NCBI GenBank assembly: GCA_964507055.1
Contig: CAZDOJ010000001.1
Span: 13,210 to 77,209 of the forward strand
DNA: 64,000 nt
Direction of reading: 5' to 3'
Source of the DNA: an uncultured Gammaproteobacteria bacterium
Lineage (GTDB): Bacteria > Patescibacteriota > Microgenomatia > Levybacterales > UBA12049
Positions 6,282 to 24,912 of the stretch are shown here, piece after piece. Position 1 is the first letter of the stretch. Every line of letters begins with the position of its first letter. Under the pieces are notes generated by a model. The model had not been told where the DNA came from and ran no database searches. It saw only the letters and a program-made list of their open reading frames with translations. The translations under genes were made by a program, and so were the position numbers.

Positions 6282-6967
6282 AGGGAAAATTAATTGTCAT
6301 CGAAGGGATCGATAGTTCAGGAAAAACAACACAGCTCAAACTACTTCAGCAGCATCTCGAAATAAATAAGATTGCATTTCAAACCGTCGACTTCCCGCAA
6401 TACCAAACATCATTTTATGGCAAAATGATTGCGCGTTTTTTACGTGGAGAATTCGGTCCGTTGCATTATGTGAGTCCATACATTATTTCAGTGATCTATG
6501 CACAAGATCGGGGAAGGGCAAAAGAAGAAATGTATCGGTGGTTGGATGAGGGCCAATTCGTTTTATCAAATCGCTATGCTACATCGAGTATGGCTCACCA
6601 GACTGGACGTTTCCCGATTCGTCAACGGAACGCTTTCGTCAAATGGCTTGAGGAATTGGAATATAAAGAAGTAGGGATTCCTCGCGAAGATATTGTTTTG
6701 TTCCTTGATGTTCCAATTAAAACTGCACAAAAATTAATGCGTAATGATAATCGCATTCAAGAGTATAGAAAAGGTGCAAAAAAAGATATGGTAGAAAAGA
6801 ATAAAGAGTACTTACAGCATTCTGCAGATACATACGAGTGGCTCACCAAAAAATTTCCTCACTGGATCCGGATCAAATGTACAAATAAAAAAGGTGAGAT
6901 GAAAAGTCGCGAAGAGATCCATGAACTTATCAAAAAAACACTTGCAAAGAAGGGCATTATCAAGTAG
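6278..6967 (+). CDS. thymidylate kinase paralog (eukaryote/archaea-like type)
   Basis: IVIEGIDSSGKTTQ P-loop, then VDFPQYQTSFYGKMIARFLRG. Overlaps the upstream tmk by 4 nt (ATGA). Confidence 0.7.
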   Translation: MKGKLIVIEGIDSSGKTTQLKLLQQHLEINKIAFQTVDFPQYQTSFYGKMIARFLRGEFGPLHYVSPYIISVIYAQDRGRAKEEMYRWLDEGQFVLSNRYATSSMAHQTGRFPIRQRNAFVKWLEELEYKEVGIPREDIVLFLDVPIKTAQKLMRNDNRIQEYRKGAKKDMVEKNKEYLQHSADTYEWLTKKFPHWIRIKCTNKKGEMKSREEIHELIKKTLAKKGIIK

Positions 6968-6984
6968 AGTAGAGAAATAAATTT

Positions 6985-7524
6985 ATGATCCTCAGTCCCA
7001 AAACATTACTCGAATTGGTTGAAAAAGAAAAGCTTGTTGAAAACCTTTCAGAGCGAGAATTAAGCAATCCTGAAGGAACAGGGTTTGATTTGCGTCTTGG
7101 TGAAGTCTTCAAGATTTCAGGAAGTGCATTTCTCGGCGAGACTCACAGAAAAACTCCAGATATCGAATCAGTCATGGTCTACGATGAAAAAAAACCACAG
7201 GCAATTAAGATTGCACCAGGCGATTTCTTTCTCGTCAAAACAATTGAAAAGATAAATCTTCCAATAGATCTCTCAGCAGTTATTTTGCCAAGAACAACGA
7301 CATTTCGATCAGGACTTTTCATCCGTACGGGTCCAATTCAACCAGGATATTCTGGTGAATTAACATTTGGTTTGAAAAACGAAGGACCTGTGACAGTTGA
7401 AATTGAGATGGGTGCACGTTTTGTCCACCTCATCTTCCACGAAATTAAAGGCGAAGGTAGCCAATACCGCGGCCAATGGCAAGGCGGACGTGTGTCTGCA
7501 ACAAAGGTTGAGAAACAGGTGTAA
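6985..7524 (+). CDS. dCTP deaminase/dUTPase-superfamily protein (second copy)
   Basis: MILSPKTL...GFDLRLGEVF...PRTTTFRSGLFIRTGPIQPGYSGELTFGLKN matches the dcd/dut fold pattern. Confidence 0.7.
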   Translation: MILSPKTLLELVEKEKLVENLSERELSNPEGTGFDLRLGEVFKISGSAFLGETHRKTPDIESVMVYDEKKPQAIKIAPGDFFLVKTIEKINLPIDLSAVILPRTTTFRSGLFIRTGPIQPGYSGELTFGLKNEGPVTVEIEMGARFVHLIFHEIKGEGSQYRGQWQGGRVSATKVEKQV

Positions 7525-18178: not shown

Positions 18179-18919
18179 ATGAGGGAATTTATGGTTAATG
18201 AAGAGTTAGTTGCTAATATACGCAATCGATTTCAACAAGGTGAGAGACGAAATGAAATTCGCATGTCTTTGATGGAAGAGGGATGGGAAGAAGCTGATGT
18301 AGATAATGCAATTTCTTTTATTCAAAATGAGGCTTTAAAGCAGCTGCCAGGGATTTCTCATATATATAAATTTATTGATCATCTCGATAGTAAAACTTCA
18401 CATTCGTCACCGAAAGTTATAGCTGCAGTTTTAGCAGGATGTTTCGGAGTTTTGCTCATCATCTTTGGAGGACTTTATTATTTCTTGGATCCTCTAGGTT
18501 TTGGTGGTGTTGAACGAGATAAACAAAGGGAAGCAGATATTGTGAAGATCCGTTCTGCGATTGATAAGTATCAAGTGGATAAGAGTGTTTATCCATCTAC
18601 GCTGCAAGAATTACTGCCAAAATATTTACAAGCAATTCCACAGGATCCAGAGACAGGCGGACAATATAGTTACCAAACAATGGACAATAATTATAACTAT
18701 GAACTTTGTGTGAATTTCGAATCAAAAGCACCTCAATGCGTTTCATCATCGATTGATACCTCAGATATTCCTATGGTGATTGCGACGCCAACTCCAGCAG
18801 CGACAGATACCGTAACTTTGCCCGTAGAACCAGATGCATCTGCACCTGCTGAATTAGAAGAAGCACCAATTGTCACAATTGTCCCTGAAGTAACTGGAGA
18901 GGGAAGTTTGGCATTATGA
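18179..18919 (+). CDS. membrane protein with pilin/GspG-like extracellular domain
   Basis: TM segment VIAAVLAGCFGVLLIIFGGLYYFL, then IRSAIDKYQVDKSVYPSTLQELLPKYLQAIPQDPETG (pseudopilin-like). The start may instead be the track position 18146. Confidence 0.5.
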   Translation: MREFMVNEELVANIRNRFQQGERRNEIRMSLMEEGWEEADVDNAISFIQNEALKQLPGISHIYKFIDHLDSKTSHSSPKVIAAVLAGCFGVLLIIFGGLYYFLDPLGFGGVERDKQREADIVKIRSAIDKYQVDKSVYPSTLQELLPKYLQAIPQDPETGGQYSYQTMDNNYNYELCVNFESKAPQCVSSSIDTSDIPMVIATPTPAATDTVTLPVEPDASAPAELEEAPIVTIVPEVTGEGSLAL

Positions 18920-19677
18920 TTTCGGCCTCGAATATAGCAAAAAAGCATACCCATTTTCATCACATCAATCAGGGAATTACGGTCGCTCAAGTTACAGATA
19001 ACGTCCAAGGAATTGAACTTGCGAAGAAAATTCTTTACGACATAACGGATGCAAAAACAACAGTATATCTTTCTGGTGGGAAAACACCGAAAGCACTATA
19101 TGAACAGCTCGCTCAAGAAGAACAAATAAAACCGGGTGCGGTTGGAATTGTCGATGAACGGTTTGGAAAAAAGTTTCATGGTCACAGCAATGAGAAAATG
19201 ATCAGAGAAACAGGCTTGATGCGTTATTTGGAAATACTAGATATTCCTTTCTATCCCATTCTCCAAAATGAAACCAGTCGCGAAGAAACAGCAAACCTAT
19301 ACGACGAAAAAGTTCGTCATCTGAACGCAACATTTCATCAAAGTATTGCAATTTTAGGAATAGGTGTAGATGGTCATACATCAAGTCTTGCACCAAATAG
19401 AAAAGATTTTAAGAATCCTATGTTTGATCCGATGCAAAGTCATTTACTTGTTTCAGAGTTTAATGATCCAAAAAGTTTTTATGGTGAGCGAGTTGGAATG
19501 ACATTTCTCGGATTGTCGATGATTGATCTCAATCTTGTTTTAGTCTTTGGTGAAGACAAAAAGGAAGCACTTGATGCGTTGTTTGATGAAGGTCCGGAAG
19601 AAGAAATCCCATCGCGTTTTTTTAAACGTCCCGATATAGCAAATAAAACTCTTTTCATTACCGATCAAAAAGTTTAG
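18916..19677 (+). CDS. pgl: 6-phosphogluconolactonase
   Basis: YLSGGKTPKALYEQL and LGIGVDGHTSSLAP are motifs of the 6PGL/NagB family. Lies adjacent to zwf. Confidence 0.8.
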   Translation: MISASNIAKKHTHFHHINQGITVAQVTDNVQGIELAKKILYDITDAKTTVYLSGGKTPKALYEQLAQEEQIKPGAVGIVDERFGKKFHGHSNEKMIRETGLMRYLEILDIPFYPILQNETSREETANLYDEKVRHLNATFHQSIAILGIGVDGHTSSLAPNRKDFKNPMFDPMQSHLLVSEFNDPKSFYGERVGMTFLGLSMIDLNLVLVFGEDKKEALDALFDEGPEEEIPSRFFKRPDIANKTLFITDQKV

Positions 19678-19685
19678 AATAGATA

Positions 19686-21122
19686 ATGATGTCTCCCTTT
19701 GTTTTTGTTATTTTTGGTGCAACAGGCGACCTGGCACAACATAAATTATTACCAGCATTATTCTCTTTATATAAACATGGTCAATTAGGAGAGAAATTTT
19801 ACATCGTTGGTTTTGCACGTCGAGAATTTACTGATGAAGCATATGCACACATGCTTGGTGATGAATTGGAATTTCACAAAGACGAACAGTGGAAAGACTT
19901 TGCAAAGAATATTTATTACCAACAAGGATATTTCGATCAGCCAGAAGGTTATGAGCAATTAATTGAAAAGCTCAATGCGTTTGACACAGAAATTGGTGCC
20001 TGCATTACTCGTGTCTTCTATCTTGCAACGCCACCCGACAATTACGAAAACATCTTATATCATCTTGAATCTACAAAACTTTCAGAAGGTTGTGGTCAAG
20101 GATCTGAAAAATGGACTCGCTTGGCTATAGAGAAACCCTTTGGCAAAGATCTTGATACGGCACGTGCTTTGGATAAGAAGCTTTCAAATATTTTTGAAGA
20201 AAAACAAATTTATCGTGTTGATCATTATCTTGGTAAAGAAACAGTACAAAATATGTTGGCCTTTCGTTTCGCCAACAGTATCTTTGAGCCAGTTTGGAAT
20301 AAACAACATATAGATAATGTGCAAATAACATTTGCTGAAAAGAAAGGAATTGGAACGCGGGGGAAATTCTTTGATGGGGTAGGGATGCTTCGTGACGTTG
20401 CTCAAAATCATTTGCTGCAATTACTTGCGACAGTTGGGATGGAACAGCCAAAAAGTTTCACCAAAGAAAGTGTTCGTGATGAACGTGCAAAAGCTATCAA
20501 GGCAATCCGTCCACTATCAAAAGATGATGTAAAGCAAAATGTCGTTCGTGGACAGTATGAAGGATATAAAAAAGAGAAGGATGTCTCGCCAGCATCACGA
20601 ACAGAAACTTTTGCAGCAATGAAATTGTTCGTTGATACAGAGCGTTTTGCAGACGTTCCATTTTATCTTCGTGCAGGGAAAGAGATTGAACAAAACCTTG
20701 TCGAGATAAAAGTCGTTTTCAAACAAACATGTCATATCTTATTTAAAGAATATGGTTGTCCTGAAACCGGTAATGTCCTCACGATTCGGATCCAACCAGA
20801 TGAAGGAATTAATCTTCAGGTGATGGCAAAAAATCCTGGAACTGAGTTATCGTTGAGTACTGTTGATATGCATTTTTCTTATCATCAAACTTTTGGCCAT
20901 CATGGTGCAGATGCATACGAAAAGATTATGCTCGATATTTTGAAGGGAGACCAAATACTCTTTAATCGATCCGATGAGCTGGATTATTCGTGGTCACTTA
21001 TTTCTCAAATATTAAAAGGTTGGGAAAGTGATGATGATGAGATCTCTCAATACGAAAAAGGGAAATGGGGGCCTCAAGAAGTTTTTGATCTCATTGAAAA
21101 AGACGGGCGAAAATGGTTGTAA
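19686..21122 (+). CDS. zwf: glucose-6-phosphate 1-dehydrogenase
   Basis: FGATGDLAQHKLLPAL, EKPFGKDL and RVDHYLGKE. Confidence 0.92.
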   Translation: MMSPFVFVIFGATGDLAQHKLLPALFSLYKHGQLGEKFYIVGFARREFTDEAYAHMLGDELEFHKDEQWKDFAKNIYYQQGYFDQPEGYEQLIEKLNAFDTEIGACITRVFYLATPPDNYENILYHLESTKLSEGCGQGSEKWTRLAIEKPFGKDLDTARALDKKLSNIFEEKQIYRVDHYLGKETVQNMLAFRFANSIFEPVWNKQHIDNVQITFAEKKGIGTRGKFFDGVGMLRDVAQNHLLQLLATVGMEQPKSFTKESVRDERAKAIKAIRPLSKDDVKQNVVRGQYEGYKKEKDVSPASRTETFAAMKLFVDTERFADVPFYLRAGKEIEQNLVEIKVVFKQTCHILFKEYGCPETGNVLTIRIQPDEGINLQVMAKNPGTELSLSTVDMHFSYHQTFGHHGADAYEKIMLDILKGDQILFNRSDELDYSWSLISQILKGWESDDDEISQYEKGKWGPQEVFDLIEKDGRKWL

Positions 21123-21167
21123 GCAATTGGTATTTATTCTCAAGTGTGGTATAACTAATAAGTAATT

Positions 21168-22151
21168 ATGCAAGTAGCGATTTTAGGATTAGGGAAAATG
21201 GGTCGTAATATTACGGAAAAACTCATGAAAGATGGACATCATGTTGTAGTCTGGAATCGTTCAAGAGCTGTTCTTGATGAGATGCGTCAGTCAGAAACAG
21301 ACTACGTAGTGAGTGGCCAATTGATGCTTGCACATACTCTCGAAGAACTTCGTGATATGCTGCAAAAACCCCGAATTATATGGAGTATGCTTCCTGCAGG
21401 TGAACCTACTGAAAGTGTTATGGCACAACTTCTTGAAAGTGTCGTGGAACAAGGTGATGTTGTCATTGATGGGGGAAATGCTTTCTACAAAGATACTGAA
21501 AGAAGAGCACAGCAGTTTCAGCAGAAATCAGTCAAGTATCTTGGCATTGGTGTTTCAGGTGGCGTTATCGGTTTGAATAATGGGTATCCACTTATGGTTG
21601 GCGGTGATCAAACAGGATATGAATATATAACTCCAGTACTCGACAGTCTCGCAAAACCAAATGGTGGACATACCTACTTTGGTCCAGGTGGTGCAGGACA
21701 TTTCGTGAAGATGGTTCACAATGGTATTGAGTACGGCATGATGCAAGCGATCGCTGAAGGATTTGGAGTTCTTGCCAAAAGTGAGTACAAGCCCGACTTG
21801 GTAAAAGTTGGAAATACTTGGCAAAAGGGAAGTATCGTTTCTAGTTTTCTTGTCTGGATGGCTGAAAATGCAATTAGTAAAGATCCAAATCTTAGCCAAT
21901 TCGATGGCTATATTGAAGCAACAGGCGAAGGGAAATGGACAAGCGAGATTGCTAAAGAAATGAAAGTCCCAACACCAGTTCTGGATGCGGCAATTGATTT
22001 TCGTAATCGTTCACAGTTTGACAAAGGCGTGCAAGAGACATATGTTGCAAAACTCGTTGCTGCACTTCGACATGAATTTGGTGGACATGATGTCCACAAA
22101 GATGATCCCCTCGCAGATGGATCAGGAACACCTCCTACACAAACTTCATAA
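21168..22151 (+). CDS. gnd: 6-phosphogluconate dehydrogenase (decarboxylating, short form)
   Basis: MQVAILGLGKMGRNI NAD(P) fold, GGAGHFVKMVHNGIEYGMMQ. Confidence 0.85.
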   Translation: MQVAILGLGKMGRNITEKLMKDGHHVVVWNRSRAVLDEMRQSETDYVVSGQLMLAHTLEELRDMLQKPRIIWSMLPAGEPTESVMAQLLESVVEQGDVVIDGGNAFYKDTERRAQQFQQKSVKYLGIGVSGGVIGLNNGYPLMVGGDQTGYEYITPVLDSLAKPNGGHTYFGPGGAGHFVKMVHNGIEYGMMQAIAEGFGVLAKSEYKPDLVKVGNTWQKGSIVSSFLVWMAENAISKDPNLSQFDGYIEATGEGKWTSEIAKEMKVPTPVLDAAIDFRNRSQFDKGVQETYVAKLVAALRHEFGGHDVHKDDPLADGSGTPPTQTS

Positions 22152-22165
22152 ATTAGCCTCAAAAA

Positions 22166-22194
22166 TTGACTTACCCAGCTATTTTAGCTACAAT
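22166..22194 (+). promoter_or_regulatory. sigma-70 promoter TTGACT-17-TACAAT driving the T-box leader
   Basis: TTGACT at 22166-22171, a 17-nt spacer, and TACAAT at 22189-22194. Confidence 0.6.
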
Positions 22195-22200
22195 AATGAC

Positions 22201-22437
22201 ATAAAGCGTCGGAGTTTGGCTTCCTACCAAACAAATTTCATTTTTTGAAACGCTGACTGTGGGTTTACAAGAACGAAGCAGTACGGAAAGCTTGACCGTA
22301 AAAATAAAGAAACTGTAATCGTTTTCAAAGAGAAAACAGAGCCAGTTAGTAAGATTTCTTTAGCAATAAGGAAATAAACCAAGGTGGTACCACGAGATTA
22401 CCTCGTCCTTGAGCAGTAACAAGGAGGGGGTTTTTTT
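22201..22437 (+). promoter_or_regulatory. T-box riboswitch leader
   Basis: AAGGTGGTACCACGAG at 22381-22396 matches the T-box consensus GGTGGTACCGCG and overlaps a terminator. Stem-I-like distal hairpin TACGG-AAAGCTTGA-CCGTA. Located upstream of an aaRS gene. Confidence 0.65.
22401..22437 (+). terminator. T-box terminator hairpin + U7
   Basis: CCTCGTCCTTG (22401-22411) pairs with CAAGGAGGGGG (22420-22430) with one G-G mismatch. TTTTTTT at 22431-22437. The 3' arm contains the AGGAGG SD of the next ORF. Confidence 0.65.
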
Positions 22438-22809
22438 GTGTCTGAAAAATATAGAGGAATAACAATTGAAATTAAATTAACTGGTCCAAATGCTGAAGCA
22501 TTCCTAGCAAAGAATGGAAAGTTCGGAAAAACATTTAGGGATGAAAACGGGCACTATCTTGTCGGAAAATTTTCTGGAAGAAAAAGAAGATCCGTTCTTG
22601 GAACCACTGATATAGTATTTGGTTTGGTTAAAGAAACAGAAAATCGTGAAGTTATTCTTATCGGTGGAATCTTGGGAAATAAAGGTAAGGGGAGGCGGGT
22701 TTCTGTCTCCAATGAAGAGGGAATTGGCACACAGCAATTGAGAAAAGGTATTGATTTAATAGTCCAAACCGATGCACCGGTTGCATTATTTGAAAATAAT
22801 ATACGCTAA
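22438..22809 (+). CDS. hypothetical protein (T-box controlled)
   Basis: 123-aa ORF with a GTG start 10 nt after AGGAGG (22422-22427). No recognisable motifs. Confidence 0.5.
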   Translation: MSEKYRGITIEIKLTGPNAEAFLAKNGKFGKTFRDENGHYLVGKFSGRKRRSVLGTTDIVFGLVKETENREVILIGGILGNKGKGRRVSVSNEEGIGTQQLRKGIDLIVQTDAPVALFENNIR

Positions 22810-22830
22810 TGATTATGCTATACTAACTAC

Positions 22831-24063
22831 ATGAAATATTCGAAATTATATATTAAAACCAGTAAAAATGTTCCTGCAGATGAGACAGCAAAAAATGCAC
22901 AGCTCCTTATTCAAGCTGGATTTGTCTACAAAATAATGGCAGGGGTTTATGCATATTCACCGCTTGGACTACGAGTTCTTGAGAATATCAAAAAGATTGT
23001 TCGCGAAGAGATGAATGCTGTTGATGGTCAAGAGTTGATCATGTCGAGTCTCCAAAATCCGGAGACATGGAAAATTACCACTCGATGGGAAGATGATGTC
23101 GTCGATGTTTGGTTCAAATCCAAACTCAAGGATGACAGCGAAATTGGTCTTGCTTGGTCTCATGAAGAAGCAATTATGGAGATGATGCAGCACTCTATAA
23201 CTAGTTATCGTGATTTGCCAACGAGCGTGTACCAATTTCAGACCAAACTACGAAACGAATTGCGAGCAAAGAGTGGCATCATGCGTGGGCGAGAATTTGT
23301 CATGAAAGATATGTATTCATTGCATGCTTCGGCTAAAGATTTGGATATCTATTATAACAATGTTATTGAGGCTTACAAAAAAGTCTATGATCGATTAGGT
23401 TTTGGTGATGATACCTATGTGACCTTTGCAAGTGGAGGTGCTTTTACTAAATTCAGTCATGAATTCCAAACCATTTGCGATGCTGGTGAAGACATCTTAT
23501 ATATTCATCGAGGCAAAAATATCGCGGTTAATGAAGAAGTGCTTGATGAGGCTGTCAAAGAATTAGGAATTGATAAAAAAGATCTTGAAAAAGTTAAGAG
23601 TGCTGAGGTCGGAAATATTTTCAACTTCGGAACAGAAAAAGCAGAGCAAATGGGAATTACTTTTACTGACAAAGAAGGAAAACAGCAACCAATTTATCTT
23701 GCATCATATGGCATTGGCATCACTCGGGTTATGGGAGTTATTGTCGAGAAGTTTGCTGATGAACGAGGTATCGTGTGGCCAGAGAATGTTGCCCCATATA
23801 AAGTCGATTTAATTTCTATCAAAGCAAACGAAAAAGCTGATGCATTATATAAAAAGCTACAAGATGCTGGAGTAGAAGTGCTTTACGATGATCGAGAAGA
23901 TATCGGTCCAGGAGCAAAGTTTGCCGATGCTGATTTGATTGGTATTCCAGTCCGATTGGTTGTCTCATCAAAAACTGAAGACAAAGTCGAATGGAAGAAG
24001 CGAACTGAAAAAGAGTCTGAATTAATAACTGTTGAAGAAGTCCTCAAACGTCTGAAGAAATAA
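22831..24063 (+). CDS. proS: prolyl-tRNA synthetase lacking the INS editing domain
   Basis: Class IIa motifs: YSPLGLRVLENIKKIVREEM, SYRDLPTSVYQFQTKLRNELRAKSGIMRGREFVMKD, YGIGITRVMGVIVE. At only 410 aa there is no insertion domain. Confidence 0.8.
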   Translation: MKYSKLYIKTSKNVPADETAKNAQLLIQAGFVYKIMAGVYAYSPLGLRVLENIKKIVREEMNAVDGQELIMSSLQNPETWKITTRWEDDVVDVWFKSKLKDDSEIGLAWSHEEAIMEMMQHSITSYRDLPTSVYQFQTKLRNELRAKSGIMRGREFVMKDMYSLHASAKDLDIYYNNVIEAYKKVYDRLGFGDDTYVTFASGGAFTKFSHEFQTICDAGEDILYIHRGKNIAVNEEVLDEAVKELGIDKKDLEKVKSAEVGNIFNFGTEKAEQMGITFTDKEGKQQPIYLASYGIGITRVMGVIVEKFADERGIVWPENVAPYKVDLISIKANEKADALYKKLQDAGVEVLYDDREDIGPGAKFADADLIGIPVRLVVSSKTEDKVEWKKRTEKESELITVEEVLKRLKK

Positions 24064-24090: not shown

Positions 24091-24912
24091 CTAAAATAGG
24101 AACGGCAAATTAAATACCTTAATCCAAAAGACTGTATAGATCGCAAAGAAAACGACAGCTCCCACAATATAAAGAACCCGCAGCAATGCTGAGGTCTCAT
24201 GTGGAGCGTTAGCCTGCGAAACTTCTGCTGGCGAAGGTAATGGCTGCGTAAAAACCTGTGCTTGGGGATCTCCGGGGGAAGGATTATAAGGAGTGACTGG
24301 AGCCATTGGGTCTGTATCTGGTGGATTTGCTTGGCTTGAATCAAGTGACGAAAATGCTTGTGGAGATGCTAAATCCGGTTGCGATTCTGTTGGTGCGGGA
24401 GCTGGATTATTGAAGAAAGCTGAAGGAGATCCTGAAGCAGATCCAAAGCTTGAAGATGAAGTAGGTTCAGATACCGGAGCAGGAGCATCTGACGCGAAAA
24501 GTGTTGCCGAAGGATCAGCTGGTTCAGGTGTTGTCGCAGGTGAAGCTGAGACTTGATCAAATGTATCCATAATTGGCGGAGCTGCTGGTTCAGGTGCAGG
24601 CATAGTATTTGAAAGTGTTGGATCTGTAATTGGACTCGCATTTGGTGATGTAGACAAAACGCTATTTGGATCAGAAGCGTTTACAAGTGGATCTGATGCA
24701 GGAGAAGAAAGATCTGTTGTAGGTGGCACGTCTCCAACTGCTGGATTCGGTGGCATCACAGAATCTGCAGGAGTTGGTGTATTTACTGGTGTATCACCAG
24801 GTGTTGTACCTGCAACATCATGTGCCGTTCCCATAATACGGTCATACGTCTCTCGTGCTTTTGGGTCGAGGTGGTTAAGGGCTTTTGGATCCATAAGGTC
24901 TCTTTTAATCAT
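24091..24912 (-). CDS. Pro/Ser/Thr/Ala-rich tail-anchored membrane protein
   Basis: 273 aa of low-complexity P/S/T/A body with a single C-terminal TM segment (LLRVLYIVGAVVFFAIYTVFWI). Confidence 0.6.
   Translation of the reverse strand: MIKRDLMDPKALNHLDPKARETYDRIMGTAHDVAGTTPGDTPVNTPTPADSVMPPNPAVGDVPPTTDLSSPASDPLVNASDPNSVLSTSPNASPITDPTLSNTMPAPEPAAPPIMDTFDQVSASPATTPEPADPSATLFASDAPAPVSEPTSSSSFGSASGSPSAFFNNPAPAPTESQPDLASPQAFSSLDSSQANPPDTDPMAPVTPYNPSPGDPQAQVFTQPLPSPAEVSQANAPHETSALLRVLYIVGAVVFFAIYTVFWIKVFNLPFLF

Follow-up and report, generated by a model that had tools for sequence, protein, structure and literature searches.

A predicted proline T-box leader of reduced architecture upstream of proS in Saccharibacteria and related uncultured bacteria

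Which tRNA does the leader upstream of proS sense in the 64,000-nucleotide (nt) stretch of contig CAZDOJ010000001.1 analysed here (hereafter the window), and is it a T-box riboswitch of the usual kind? In the window, a leader of about 235 nt separates a promoter from ORF123, an open reading frame (ORF) for a protein of 123 residues, which is followed by proS, the gene for a prolyl-tRNA synthetase (ProRS) without the INS editing domain (Table 1). A sequence-only reading of this DNA had described the promoter, the leader, a T-box sequence, a terminator with seven U residues, and an AGGAGG in the 3′ arm of that terminator, 10 nt before the GTG of the ORF at 22438-22809, and we find all of them where it had placed them. 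It had also proposed that GAA-ACU-G (22309-22315) would specify threonine, had set aside a CCU in the loop of an upstream hairpin as atypically positioned, and had been left with a choice: either the leader senses a tRNA other than the one implied by the downstream synthetase, or the proposed fold was wrong. Our comparison of 15 homologous leaders points to the fold and not to a different tRNA. We consider it very probable that the leader is a tRNA-Pro-responsive T-box riboswitch with a minimal architecture.

The clearest marks of a T-box are found in the 3′ half of the leader. RF00230, the T-box family, is the sole Rfam match in the window at E<=0.05; it covers 22192-22413 with 36.1 bits (E=2.2e-4 for the 64-kb window, E=1.4e-6 for a 400-nt region), and the seven leaders tested, the window's among them, score 33-40 bits. 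The alignment has high posterior probability over Stem III, Stem IIA and the antiterminator, its best part, where the posterior is near 1, and the base of the leader (AAAGCG...GAGCU) is aligned to the canonical Stem I base. All 15 leaders keep an antiterminator in which helices A1 and A2 flank a 7-nt bulge (UGGN followed by ACC), and a hairpin with a tract of 6-8 U residues follows in 15/15. Moreover, helix A2 covaries in three of them (GUGUA/UACGC in L209, and also in L213 and L214). In the window, the terminator shares its 5′ arm with the antiterminator, so that the two folds are mutually exclusive, with predicted hairpin energies of -18.8 kcal/mol for the terminator versus -8.2 kcal/mol for the antiterminator. 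The folding energy of the whole leader beats 200/200 shuffles (z=-3.95), and its sequence remains 77% identical to that of a relative with saturated synonymous sites (pS 0.55-0.66). Two further hallmarks are present, namely a Stem IIA/B pseudoknot with its F-box (ACGG/CCGU plus a 3-bp IIB) and, in Stem I, a specifier codon that agrees with the amino acid of the genes under control and has a purine as its 3′ neighbour. Discriminator half, pseudoknot and the logic of the specifier together make the leader, on sequence grounds, a T-box.

The 5′ half departs from the T-box model, which is why the sequence-only reading was unable to place the specifier. The RF00230 alignment replaces 86 Stem I model positions by 29 nt in the window, and deletes 76-86 such positions across the leaders tested. 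The distal Stem I platform (the AG bulge and distal loop that make up the double T-loop) is absent, and a 7-nt specifier loop caps the helix directly.

The architecture of this half becomes readable by comparison. The 15 distinct leaders, that of the window included, were collected by three routes (the leader of L213 ends at a contig edge). The proS loci of Saccharibacteria reference genomes yielded a T-box in just three species of 80 loci (L005, L043 and L046), while contigs encoding relatives of ORF123 yielded L004, L205, L206-8, L209, L211, L213 and L214. The third route was a metagenome scan with a pattern for the antiterminator only, blind to Stem I; among the matches listed, 116 of 120 loci are unrelated T-boxes, and the other four, L136, L187, L202 and L203, belong to this family. 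A filter for 'AGTACSG' had missed these four because Stem II covaries.

The members share a common plan. They start with AAAGC(G) and a lower helix of 3-4 bp (AGC/GCU) round a K-turn-like internal loop (in the window, UCG-GA in the 5′ strand opposite AA in the 3′ strand), above which an upper helix of 6 bp carries a 7-nt loop, NNN-CCN-R, directly on top. Then come a 5-bp Stem II, Stem IIA (ACGG/CCGU), IIB, a variable Stem III, the antiterminator and the terminator. IIB is formed by three bases of the IIA loop that pair with three bases 6-9 nt downstream, in the window CUU 22291-93 with AAG 22307-09. The lineage of the window has two extras, a hairpin within Stem I at 22236-50 (hairpin B) and a 17-nt insert in Stem II; in the compact relatives Stem II is closed by purine-rich pentaloops (GAUGA, GAAGA, GAUAA, GCUAA). 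Hairpin B is missing in L203, L136, L187, L202, L205, L206 and L211, and it covaries in L043/L046 (CUC-GCAA-GAG versus CCU-GAAA-AGG). The extent of the variable region in the window comes from the minimum-free-energy fold, with 22353-22375 aligned to Stem III by the Rfam model and an AAA between Stem III and the antiterminator; its length differs between relatives, and it is almost missing in L043/L046. In several relatives, the Stem III region (L203, minus strand, ~6930-6990; L206, 3840-3885; L211, 2870-2900; L214, 935-960; also L202 and L187) contains a GC-rich hairpin and then A-U6-8, in forms such as CCACC-GAAA-GGUGG-AUUUUUU, CCCGC..GCGGG-AUUUUUU, CCUCC-GAAA-GGAGG-AUUUUUU and GCGCC-GUAA-GGCGU-UUUUUU, whose stems differ by compensatory changes.

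Compensatory changes support Stem II and the pseudoknot of this plan. When 12 leaders are aligned by MAFFT without fitting, 99.1% of the cells are paired and the covariation score is reached by 0/500 shuffles; the lower helix pairs in 12/12 rows and the specifier hairpin in 100% of cells, and RNAalifold run on an unfitted MAFFT alignment predicts both the specifier hairpin and Stem II de novo. Stem II shows double-sided changes in four of its five pairs with 100% pairing (unfitted MAFFT alignment A7), its variants including ACUGC/GCAGU, AUUGC/GCAAU, AGUAC/GUACU, CAUAC/GUAUG and CGUAC/GUACG. The specifier stem varies as well (GUUUGA/UCAAAU in L004, GUUUGG/CCAGAU in L214, GAAGAG/CUCUUC in L046). 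Double-sided changes affect 17 of 31 pairs in a hand-curated core alignment (A5), from which insertions were taken out and into which spacers were put, so that it is fitted to the model and its figures lean towards structure. In the same alignment all three IIB pairs covary with 100% pairing, through eight complementary triplets (CUU/AAG, CCU/AGG, UCC/GGA, GUC/GAC, AUC/GAU, GGA/UCC, GUU/AAC and GGU/ACC).

A covariance model of the decoding module, built from 12 leaders, recovers L043 and L046, both left out of training, at E values of about 1e-3 to 1e-4, and aligns their differing stem and loop onto the specifier hairpin. Among the further Saccharibacteria proS loci that were searched, and among the 116 unrelated T-box loci of the metagenome scan, the same model has no match. 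It also settled the placement of L043 and L046 in Stem I, where the first MAFFT alignments had misplaced them. An alternative pairing in these two leaders, CAGCUC/GAGCUG with CCA-A in the junction loop, was dropped for the homologous hairpin; the codon is Pro either way. Similarly, we rejected a 3-bp extension of Stem II suggested by RNAalifold (CUG/CGG), which is incompatible both with the covarying IIA helix and with the lower helix of Stem I as aligned by Rfam.

Six sequences of the specifier loop occur: CUUCCUA in the window, L004 and L214; CAUCCUA in L005, L205 and L206; UUUCCCG in L203, L187, L202 and L209; UAUCCCG in L211; UCUCCCG in L136; and UUCCCAG in L043 and L046. In 15/15 leaders, loop positions 4-6 read CCU, CCC or CCA, with a purine at position 7. 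Every operon downstream is proline-related. An INS-less proS follows in the window, L004, L005 and L043/L046, an INS-containing proS in L206, L211 and L214, and an archaeal-type proS in L202, after a CsaA-like tRNA-binding gene; L187 has proB-proA-proC, and L136 has an aminotransferase gene with proC and proS. Since a CCN-purine loop and proline genes go together in all leaders, the specifier is read as Pro and not Thr, and in the window we assign it to the Pro codon CCU at 22223-22225. The sequence-only reading had thus located the right triplet; what does not stand is its dismissal as atypical, as the CCU occupies loop positions 4-6 and is followed by a purine.

The threonine codon that it preferred, ACU at about 22312-22314, would have the leader respond to a tRNA other than that of the downstream synthetase. 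The string GAAACUG is indeed present in the window and recurs in its nearest relatives, L005 and L004 (GAAACUG, GAAACCUG), but it lies 3′ of Stem II and IIA, outside Stem I, where its first G closes the covarying IIB, so that the string is no more than the end of a IIB strand and a linker. It is not conserved in the compact homologues, being missing from L203, L136, L187, L202, L205, L043 and L046, and it has to compete with an invariant CCN-purine loop before genes that are all proline genes. We find a threonine specifier barely conceivable. A serine specifier one base earlier in the loop deserves slightly more attention, as UCC stands at positions 3-5 in 13 of 15 loops and this register would mimic the placement of an anticodon in a 7-nt loop. 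L043 and L046, however, have CCC at positions 3-5, whereas positions 4-6 give a Pro codon in 15/15; no serine-related gene follows any member, and in T-boxes the specifier is followed by a purine beside the helix, in keeping with a codon at positions 4-6 and the purine at position 7. On this balance the serine register is very unlikely, and we retain proline. The bulge sequence UGGU would moreover predict A73 as the discriminator base of the tRNA, and A73 is the usual discriminator in bacterial tRNA-Pro. We also observe that loop positions 6 and 7 change together: six leaders have CCU-A, another six CCC-G and two CCA-G (L213 is truncated), a pattern that may reflect shared ancestry or a constraint tying the wobble base to the next purine.

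How could such a leader work? The observed sequence elements, conservation, covariation and proline gene context are the basis from which we infer tRNA binding, charge sensing and termination. Transcription probably begins at about 22201, downstream of a promoter with 10/12 consensus matches; a TTGACA-like -35 element and a TAnAAT or TATACT -10 element lie at an equal distance from AAAGC in L004, L005, L043, L205, L206, L209, L211 and L214. The nascent leader would then expose the CCU and its purine in the 7-nt terminal loop of the short Stem I hairpin, and the 5-bp Stem II with the IIA/B pseudoknot would pack alongside this hairpin, making up a decoding module able to catch the anticodon of tRNA-Pro without contact to the tRNA elbow. 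If that tRNA is uncharged, its 3′ ACCA would pair with UGGU at 22385-88 and stabilise the antiterminator, permitting read-through; if it is charged, the stronger terminator would form and transcription would stop in U7, one base before the GTG of ORF123. The read-through mRNA would encode ORF123 and presumably continue into proS. In this scheme, the T-box would provide a starvation-induced boost over a basal level of ProRS made from a probable leaderless promoter of proS itself.

Since the terminator outcompetes the unaided antiterminator, and since U6-U8 follows in 15 leaders, the primary mode is most likely an attenuation of transcription, which uncharged tRNA-Pro would relieve. A further control at the level of translation is plausible. 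The Shine-Dalgarno (SD) sequence of ORF123 (AGGAGG, 22422-22427) lies inside the 3′ arm of the terminator and the GTG follows directly after U7, so a hairpin re-forming on the full-length mRNA would hide the ribosome-binding site and block translation of ORF123 as well. We hold the chances of this translational layer to be about evenly balanced. The start codon of a long first ORF abuts the U-tract, with an SD in the 3′ arm, in 10 of 15 leaders, and ultrashort Stem I elements have so far been linked to translational T-boxes (PMC7583486); one could thus argue that the element is purely translational, as in Actinobacteria, with the hairpin at 22401-22430 acting as an SD sequestrator and the U-run being incidental. 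This possibility, which we judge unlikely, has to face the conservation of a GC-rich hairpin with 6-8 U residues in 15/15 leaders, including L043/L046, L136 and L213, where the regulated gene does not start until 20-60 nt later; the gene in L213 has its own SD, and there is no SD-like sequence near the proS start in L043/L046.

A number of observations weigh against a proline-responsive, terminating T-box with an added translational layer, and should be set beside the evidence above, together with the fitted nature of the curated alignment. At gathering thresholds Rfam finds no RNA family in the window: the gathering score of RF00230 is 93, far above the 36.1 bits of the leader. The Infernal search that the sequence-only reading had proposed as a check did return the expected family, then, but below its gathering score and with almost all of Stem I deleted. 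In Stem II we recognise no S-turn, no 5-purine string and no loop-E motif, and the S-turn is the element that clamps the codon-anticodon helix (PMC7583486). The K-turn at the base of Stem I, read by eye, is imperfect, consisting in the window of a 3-nt bulge with GA opposite AA (G.A plus A.A, not A.G); in L211 GA is opposite GA, and L136 and L004 depart further. The specifier stem is almost invariant in most members and gives little information alone, and the lineages sampled amount to about six or seven well-separated ones. A tRNA search of the window and 91 loci gave no tRNA-Pro, solely a Thr(UGU) in L055 and a Gln(CUG) in L203, and unless there is a tRNA with an AGG anticodon, CCU would have to be decoded by wobble, through a G-U pair or a modified U. 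In general, T-boxes that act on transcription depend on the distal Stem I to bind the tRNA elbow (PMC7583486), a rule under which a terminator-type T-box without distal Stem I is unexpected. As for the translational layer, an SD-like run in the 3′ arm is nearly forced by complementarity to the T-box sequence, and such a run also occurs in L043/L046, where no ORF abuts the terminator.

It might even be speculated that the leader is a decaying T-box remnant without regulation, ORF123 and proS being constitutive. The low Rfam score, the missing distal Stem I and S-turn, the putative own promoter of proS and the lack of a T-box in most Saccharibacteria proS loci would all be accommodated by decay. 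Decay would not predict the strong sequence constraint against saturated synonymous sites, the compensatory changes in Stem II, IIB and A2, or the maintenance of the same reduced architecture in divergent lineages before different proline operons, and we regard a remnant as highly improbable. A functional, tRNA-Pro-responsive T-box thus remains our preferred interpretation.

Comparison with known systems shows what has been kept and what has been lost. Canonical T-boxes are found in Firmicutes and relatives, with examples such as tyrS and, for proline, proBA and proI of Bacillus subtilis, whereas this family is found in Saccharibacteria, members of the candidate phyla radiation (CPR). With the canonical class I elements (RF00230) it shares the 7-nt UGGNACC bulge between A1 and A2, the competing terminator with its U-tract, Stem III, the IIA/B pseudoknot with a CCGU F-box, the base of Stem I, and a codon plus purine that match the regulated genes. 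In contrast to them, it has no specifier internal loop with an S-turn, no AG bulge, no distal loop and no elbow-binding double T-loop platform, and in place of the long Stem II helix with an S-turn it has 5 bp with a purine-rich loop. The sequence-only reading had expected that a CCN codon in the specifier loop would make this an ordinary proS T-box; the CCN codon is there, but the lack of a distal Stem I, the 5-bp Stem II and the low Rfam scores set the family apart from ordinary members.

The closest parallel is found in the actinobacterial ileS T-boxes with an ultrashort Stem I (class II) of Mycobacterium tuberculosis, M. smegmatis and Nocardia farcinica (Sherwood et al. 2015 as summarised in PMC7583486). 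Both have a truncated, platform-less Stem I, a decoding module made of Stem I, Stem II and IIA/B, and an SD on the strand with which the 3′ half of the T-box sequence is paired; in addition, the specifier of our family lies in the terminal loop of Stem I, as in class II. However, the actinobacterial elements regulate by SD sequestration without an intrinsic terminator, whereas a terminator with U6-U8 is present here in 15/15. Stem II is also much shorter here, without a recognisable S-turn, the amino acid is Pro and not Ile, the phylum is another one, and the gene regulated first often encodes something other than a synthetase. The glyQS T-boxes are likewise naturally reduced and transcriptional, but they keep a long Stem I with its platform and drop Stem II and IIA/B, the reverse of what is seen here. 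The short-Stem I model of TBDB was built for Actinobacteria only, and our literature search returned no paper linking T-boxes with Saccharibacteria, Patescibacteria or the CPR; the original reports on ultrashort Stem I elements were outside that search and may mention terminator-type cases. The leader is apparently a proline T-box of reduced architecture that has not been catalogued.

What is the first gene that this T-box would control? ORF123 is a real, fast-evolving gene: its dN/dS ratio is 0.23-0.31 among three orthologues, which keep its frame, length and start. Relative to L005 the ratio is 0.31 for ORF123, 0.06 for the upstream 6-phosphogluconate dehydrogenase (6PGD)-like gene (21168-22151) and 0.02 for proS; the protein is about 61% identical, compared with 87% and 94% for these neighbours, and its non-synonymous rate is 5-15 times theirs. 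The family is rare. An exhaustive HMMER search found 21 relatives in 1.84 billion cluster representatives; a word-indexed search found just one cluster besides that of ORF123. Its members are basic proteins of about 120 residues (median isoelectric point 9.8) with motifs including NREV and G-x-G-x-QQ-x-T-x-GV, and AlphaFold predicts an all-beta structure for ORF123 (pLDDT 87, pTM 0.79). ORF123 has no sequence match in Pfam, NCBIfam or the Protein Data Bank (PDB), and a PDB profile search gave chance-level matches alone.

The genomic context of the family is more informative. Of 11 contexts examined, 10 have proS directly after the ORF123 family gene (the assignment in P0003 and L209 is based solely on position or on the first codons), and where the upstream DNA is known a T-box of this type precedes the gene, abutting it in most loci and lying about 50 nt off in L213. 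L212 is an exception, its ORF123 relative having its own promoter and no adjacent proS. Several database entries (P0009, P0010, P0016, P0017, P0020 and P0023, and the call at 3001 in L211) start too early, with N-termini such as KGGGFFV and GGSFFV that result from translating the GGAGG of the 3′ arm together with the U-tract; the correct start is a GTG or ATG directly after the U-tract, and the call for P0005 (L206) is too late. As judged from these sequences, ORF123 represents an uncharacterised, rare family co-regulated with the proS cassette, and a role tied to tRNA-Pro or ProRS is the natural guess.

It had been suggested that ORF123 could be a trans-acting partner making up for the missing INS domain. 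The trans-editing proteins of the YbaK/ProXp type (PF04073) are likewise small proteins encoded beside proS, and the likeness goes no further, as 23 members of the family have no match to PF04073 or to any other Pfam family, and the predicted all-beta fold of ORF123 has no YbaK-like match. Since the family occurs beside both INS-less and INS-containing ProRS, the idea of an INS substitute is unsupported. In L203 and L202, a CsaA/Trbp111-like tRNA-binding-domain gene of about 115-120 residues (by eye) is found between the Pro T-box and proS, the same slot that ORF123 occupies, and in L210 (1-224) such a gene lies just 5′ of an ORF123 homologue.

Turning to proS itself, the lack of INS noted by the sequence-only reading is confirmed by Pfam, which detects tRNA-synt_2b and HGTP_anticodon and no PF04073; TIGR00409 matches with 371 bits in two stretches. 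The leaderless-type promoter that it had assigned to the gene also has a counterpart in our analysis, a candidate extended -10 element that matches the consensus and ends 6 nt before the ATG. TGnTATACT is kept after the ORF in L005, L004, L205, L206, L209, L211, L213 and L214, which suggests that proS is also transcribed from its own constitutive leaderless promoter. In L004 (1150-1200) and L213 (575-610), a conserved insert of about 40 nt (CCUUCGaCUUuGCUCAGG-like, possibly a hairpin) separates TGnTATACT from the ATG of proS, whereas in the window the ATG follows directly. In many other Saccharibacteria proS loci (L006-L084, 70 nt upstream), a -10 hexamer (GGTACAAT, GGTATAAT, TGCTATAAT) ends 6-10 nt before the ATG and there is no SD, which suggests that leaderless or near-leaderless proS transcripts are common in this group. 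We found no convincing terminator in the gap between ORF123 and proS, so proS should be part of the read-through transcripts.

The organism belongs to Saccharibacteria (TM7). About 80 genomes encode a ProRS with 65-94% identity to that of the window, nearly all of them labelled Saccharibacteria or bearing obviously mis-binned names. Among the genomes with a Saccharibacteria-type ProRS (66-94% identical to that of the window) and other labels are L005, L012, L013, L019, L020, L022, L029, L031, L043 and L046, and others; the labels include Gammaproteobacteria, Bdellovibrionales, Nevskiaceae, Chloroflexi, Moraniibacteriota and Nomurabacteria, and these are probably mislabelled or mis-binned metagenome-assembled genomes. 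Upstream of the leader, at 18916-22151, a 6-phosphogluconolactonase-like gene, a glucose-6-phosphate dehydrogenase gene (G6PD) and a gene for a short 6PGD-like dehydrogenase form an oxidative pentose-phosphate cluster, which is syntenic with the T-box-ORF-proS cassette in L001, L205, L206, L211 and L212. Beyond proS, on the minus strand (24091-24912), lies a gene for a 273-residue protein that has a very high content of Pro, Ser, Thr and Ala, carries a hydrophobic segment in its C-terminal part and has no Pfam match; its relatives vary in length (267 residues in L002, 256 in L004).

Table 1. Features of the predicted proline T-box leader and of the genes that follow it (window positions; aa, amino acids)
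Feature	Position	Strand	Details
Leader promoter, sigma-70-type	22166-22194	+	TTGACT, 17-nt spacer, TACAAT
Stem I as three-way junction	22205-22254	+	lower helix AGCG 22205-08 / CGCU 22251-54
Specifier hairpin	22214-22232	+	GUUUGG-CUUCCUA-CCAAAC; predicted specifier CCU, 3′ purine A 22226
Hairpin B, lineage-specific, within Stem I	22236-22250	+	
Stem II	22256-22282	+	5-bp helix ACUGU/GCAGU; window lineage: encloses purine-flanked insert (GG..GUU..AAC..GAA)
Stem IIA/B pseudoknot	22283-22309	+	IIA ACGG 22283-86 / CCGU 22296-99; F-box-like CCGUAAAA
Variable region	22321-22375	+	extra hairpin 22321-22337; Stem III 22353-22375, GAUUUCUU-UAGCAAU-AAGGAAAU
Antiterminator (discriminator)	22380-22411	+	CAAGG-UGGUACC-ACGAG-AUUAC-CUCGU-CCUUG; A1 CAAGG/CCUUG, A2 ACGAG/CUCGU, bulge UGGUACC 22385-22391
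T-box sequence	22381-22396	+	AAGGTGGTACCACGAG
Intrinsic terminator	22401-22437	+	arms CCTCGTCCTTG 22401-22411 and CAAGGAGGGGG 22420-22430; U7 22431-22437
ORF123	22438-22809	+	GTG start, 123 aa, isoelectric point 9.9
Candidate internal proS promoter	22816-22830	+	extended -10 TGCTATACT 22816-24, 6 nt, then ATG
proS	22831-24063	+	bacterial-type ProRS without INS editing domain, 410 aa

Taken to its full extent, our reading would be that Saccharibacteria and related uncultured bacteria possess an uncatalogued T-box class that terminates transcription without elbow contact, has a 5-bp Stem II and a terminator doubling as SD sequestrator, and controls in ORF123 a new accessory factor of tRNA-Pro or ProRS. 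As a package we regard this as doubtful, and offer it tentatively. It is tempting to speculate, as part of it, that an ORF123-type factor might supply in trans the grip on the tRNA that the RNA has lost.

Current accounts of T-boxes hold that a long Stem I platform is needed to catch the tRNA fast enough for transcriptional control. A conserved natural family in which a clear intrinsic terminator accompanies an ultrashort Stem I and a miniature Stem II would provide a ready test of the rule that assigns the platform to transcriptional elements and the short Stem I to translational ones, and its decoding module, at about 75 nt, is among the smallest seen. Moreover, at its curated threshold the Rfam model misses T-boxes in uncultured bacteria with reduced genomes, and the catalogues derived from it probably undercount them. 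Finally, the T-box would tie the uncharacterised ORF123 family to the physiology of proline and tRNA-Pro in Saccharibacteria, which gives a first functional lead for these proteins.

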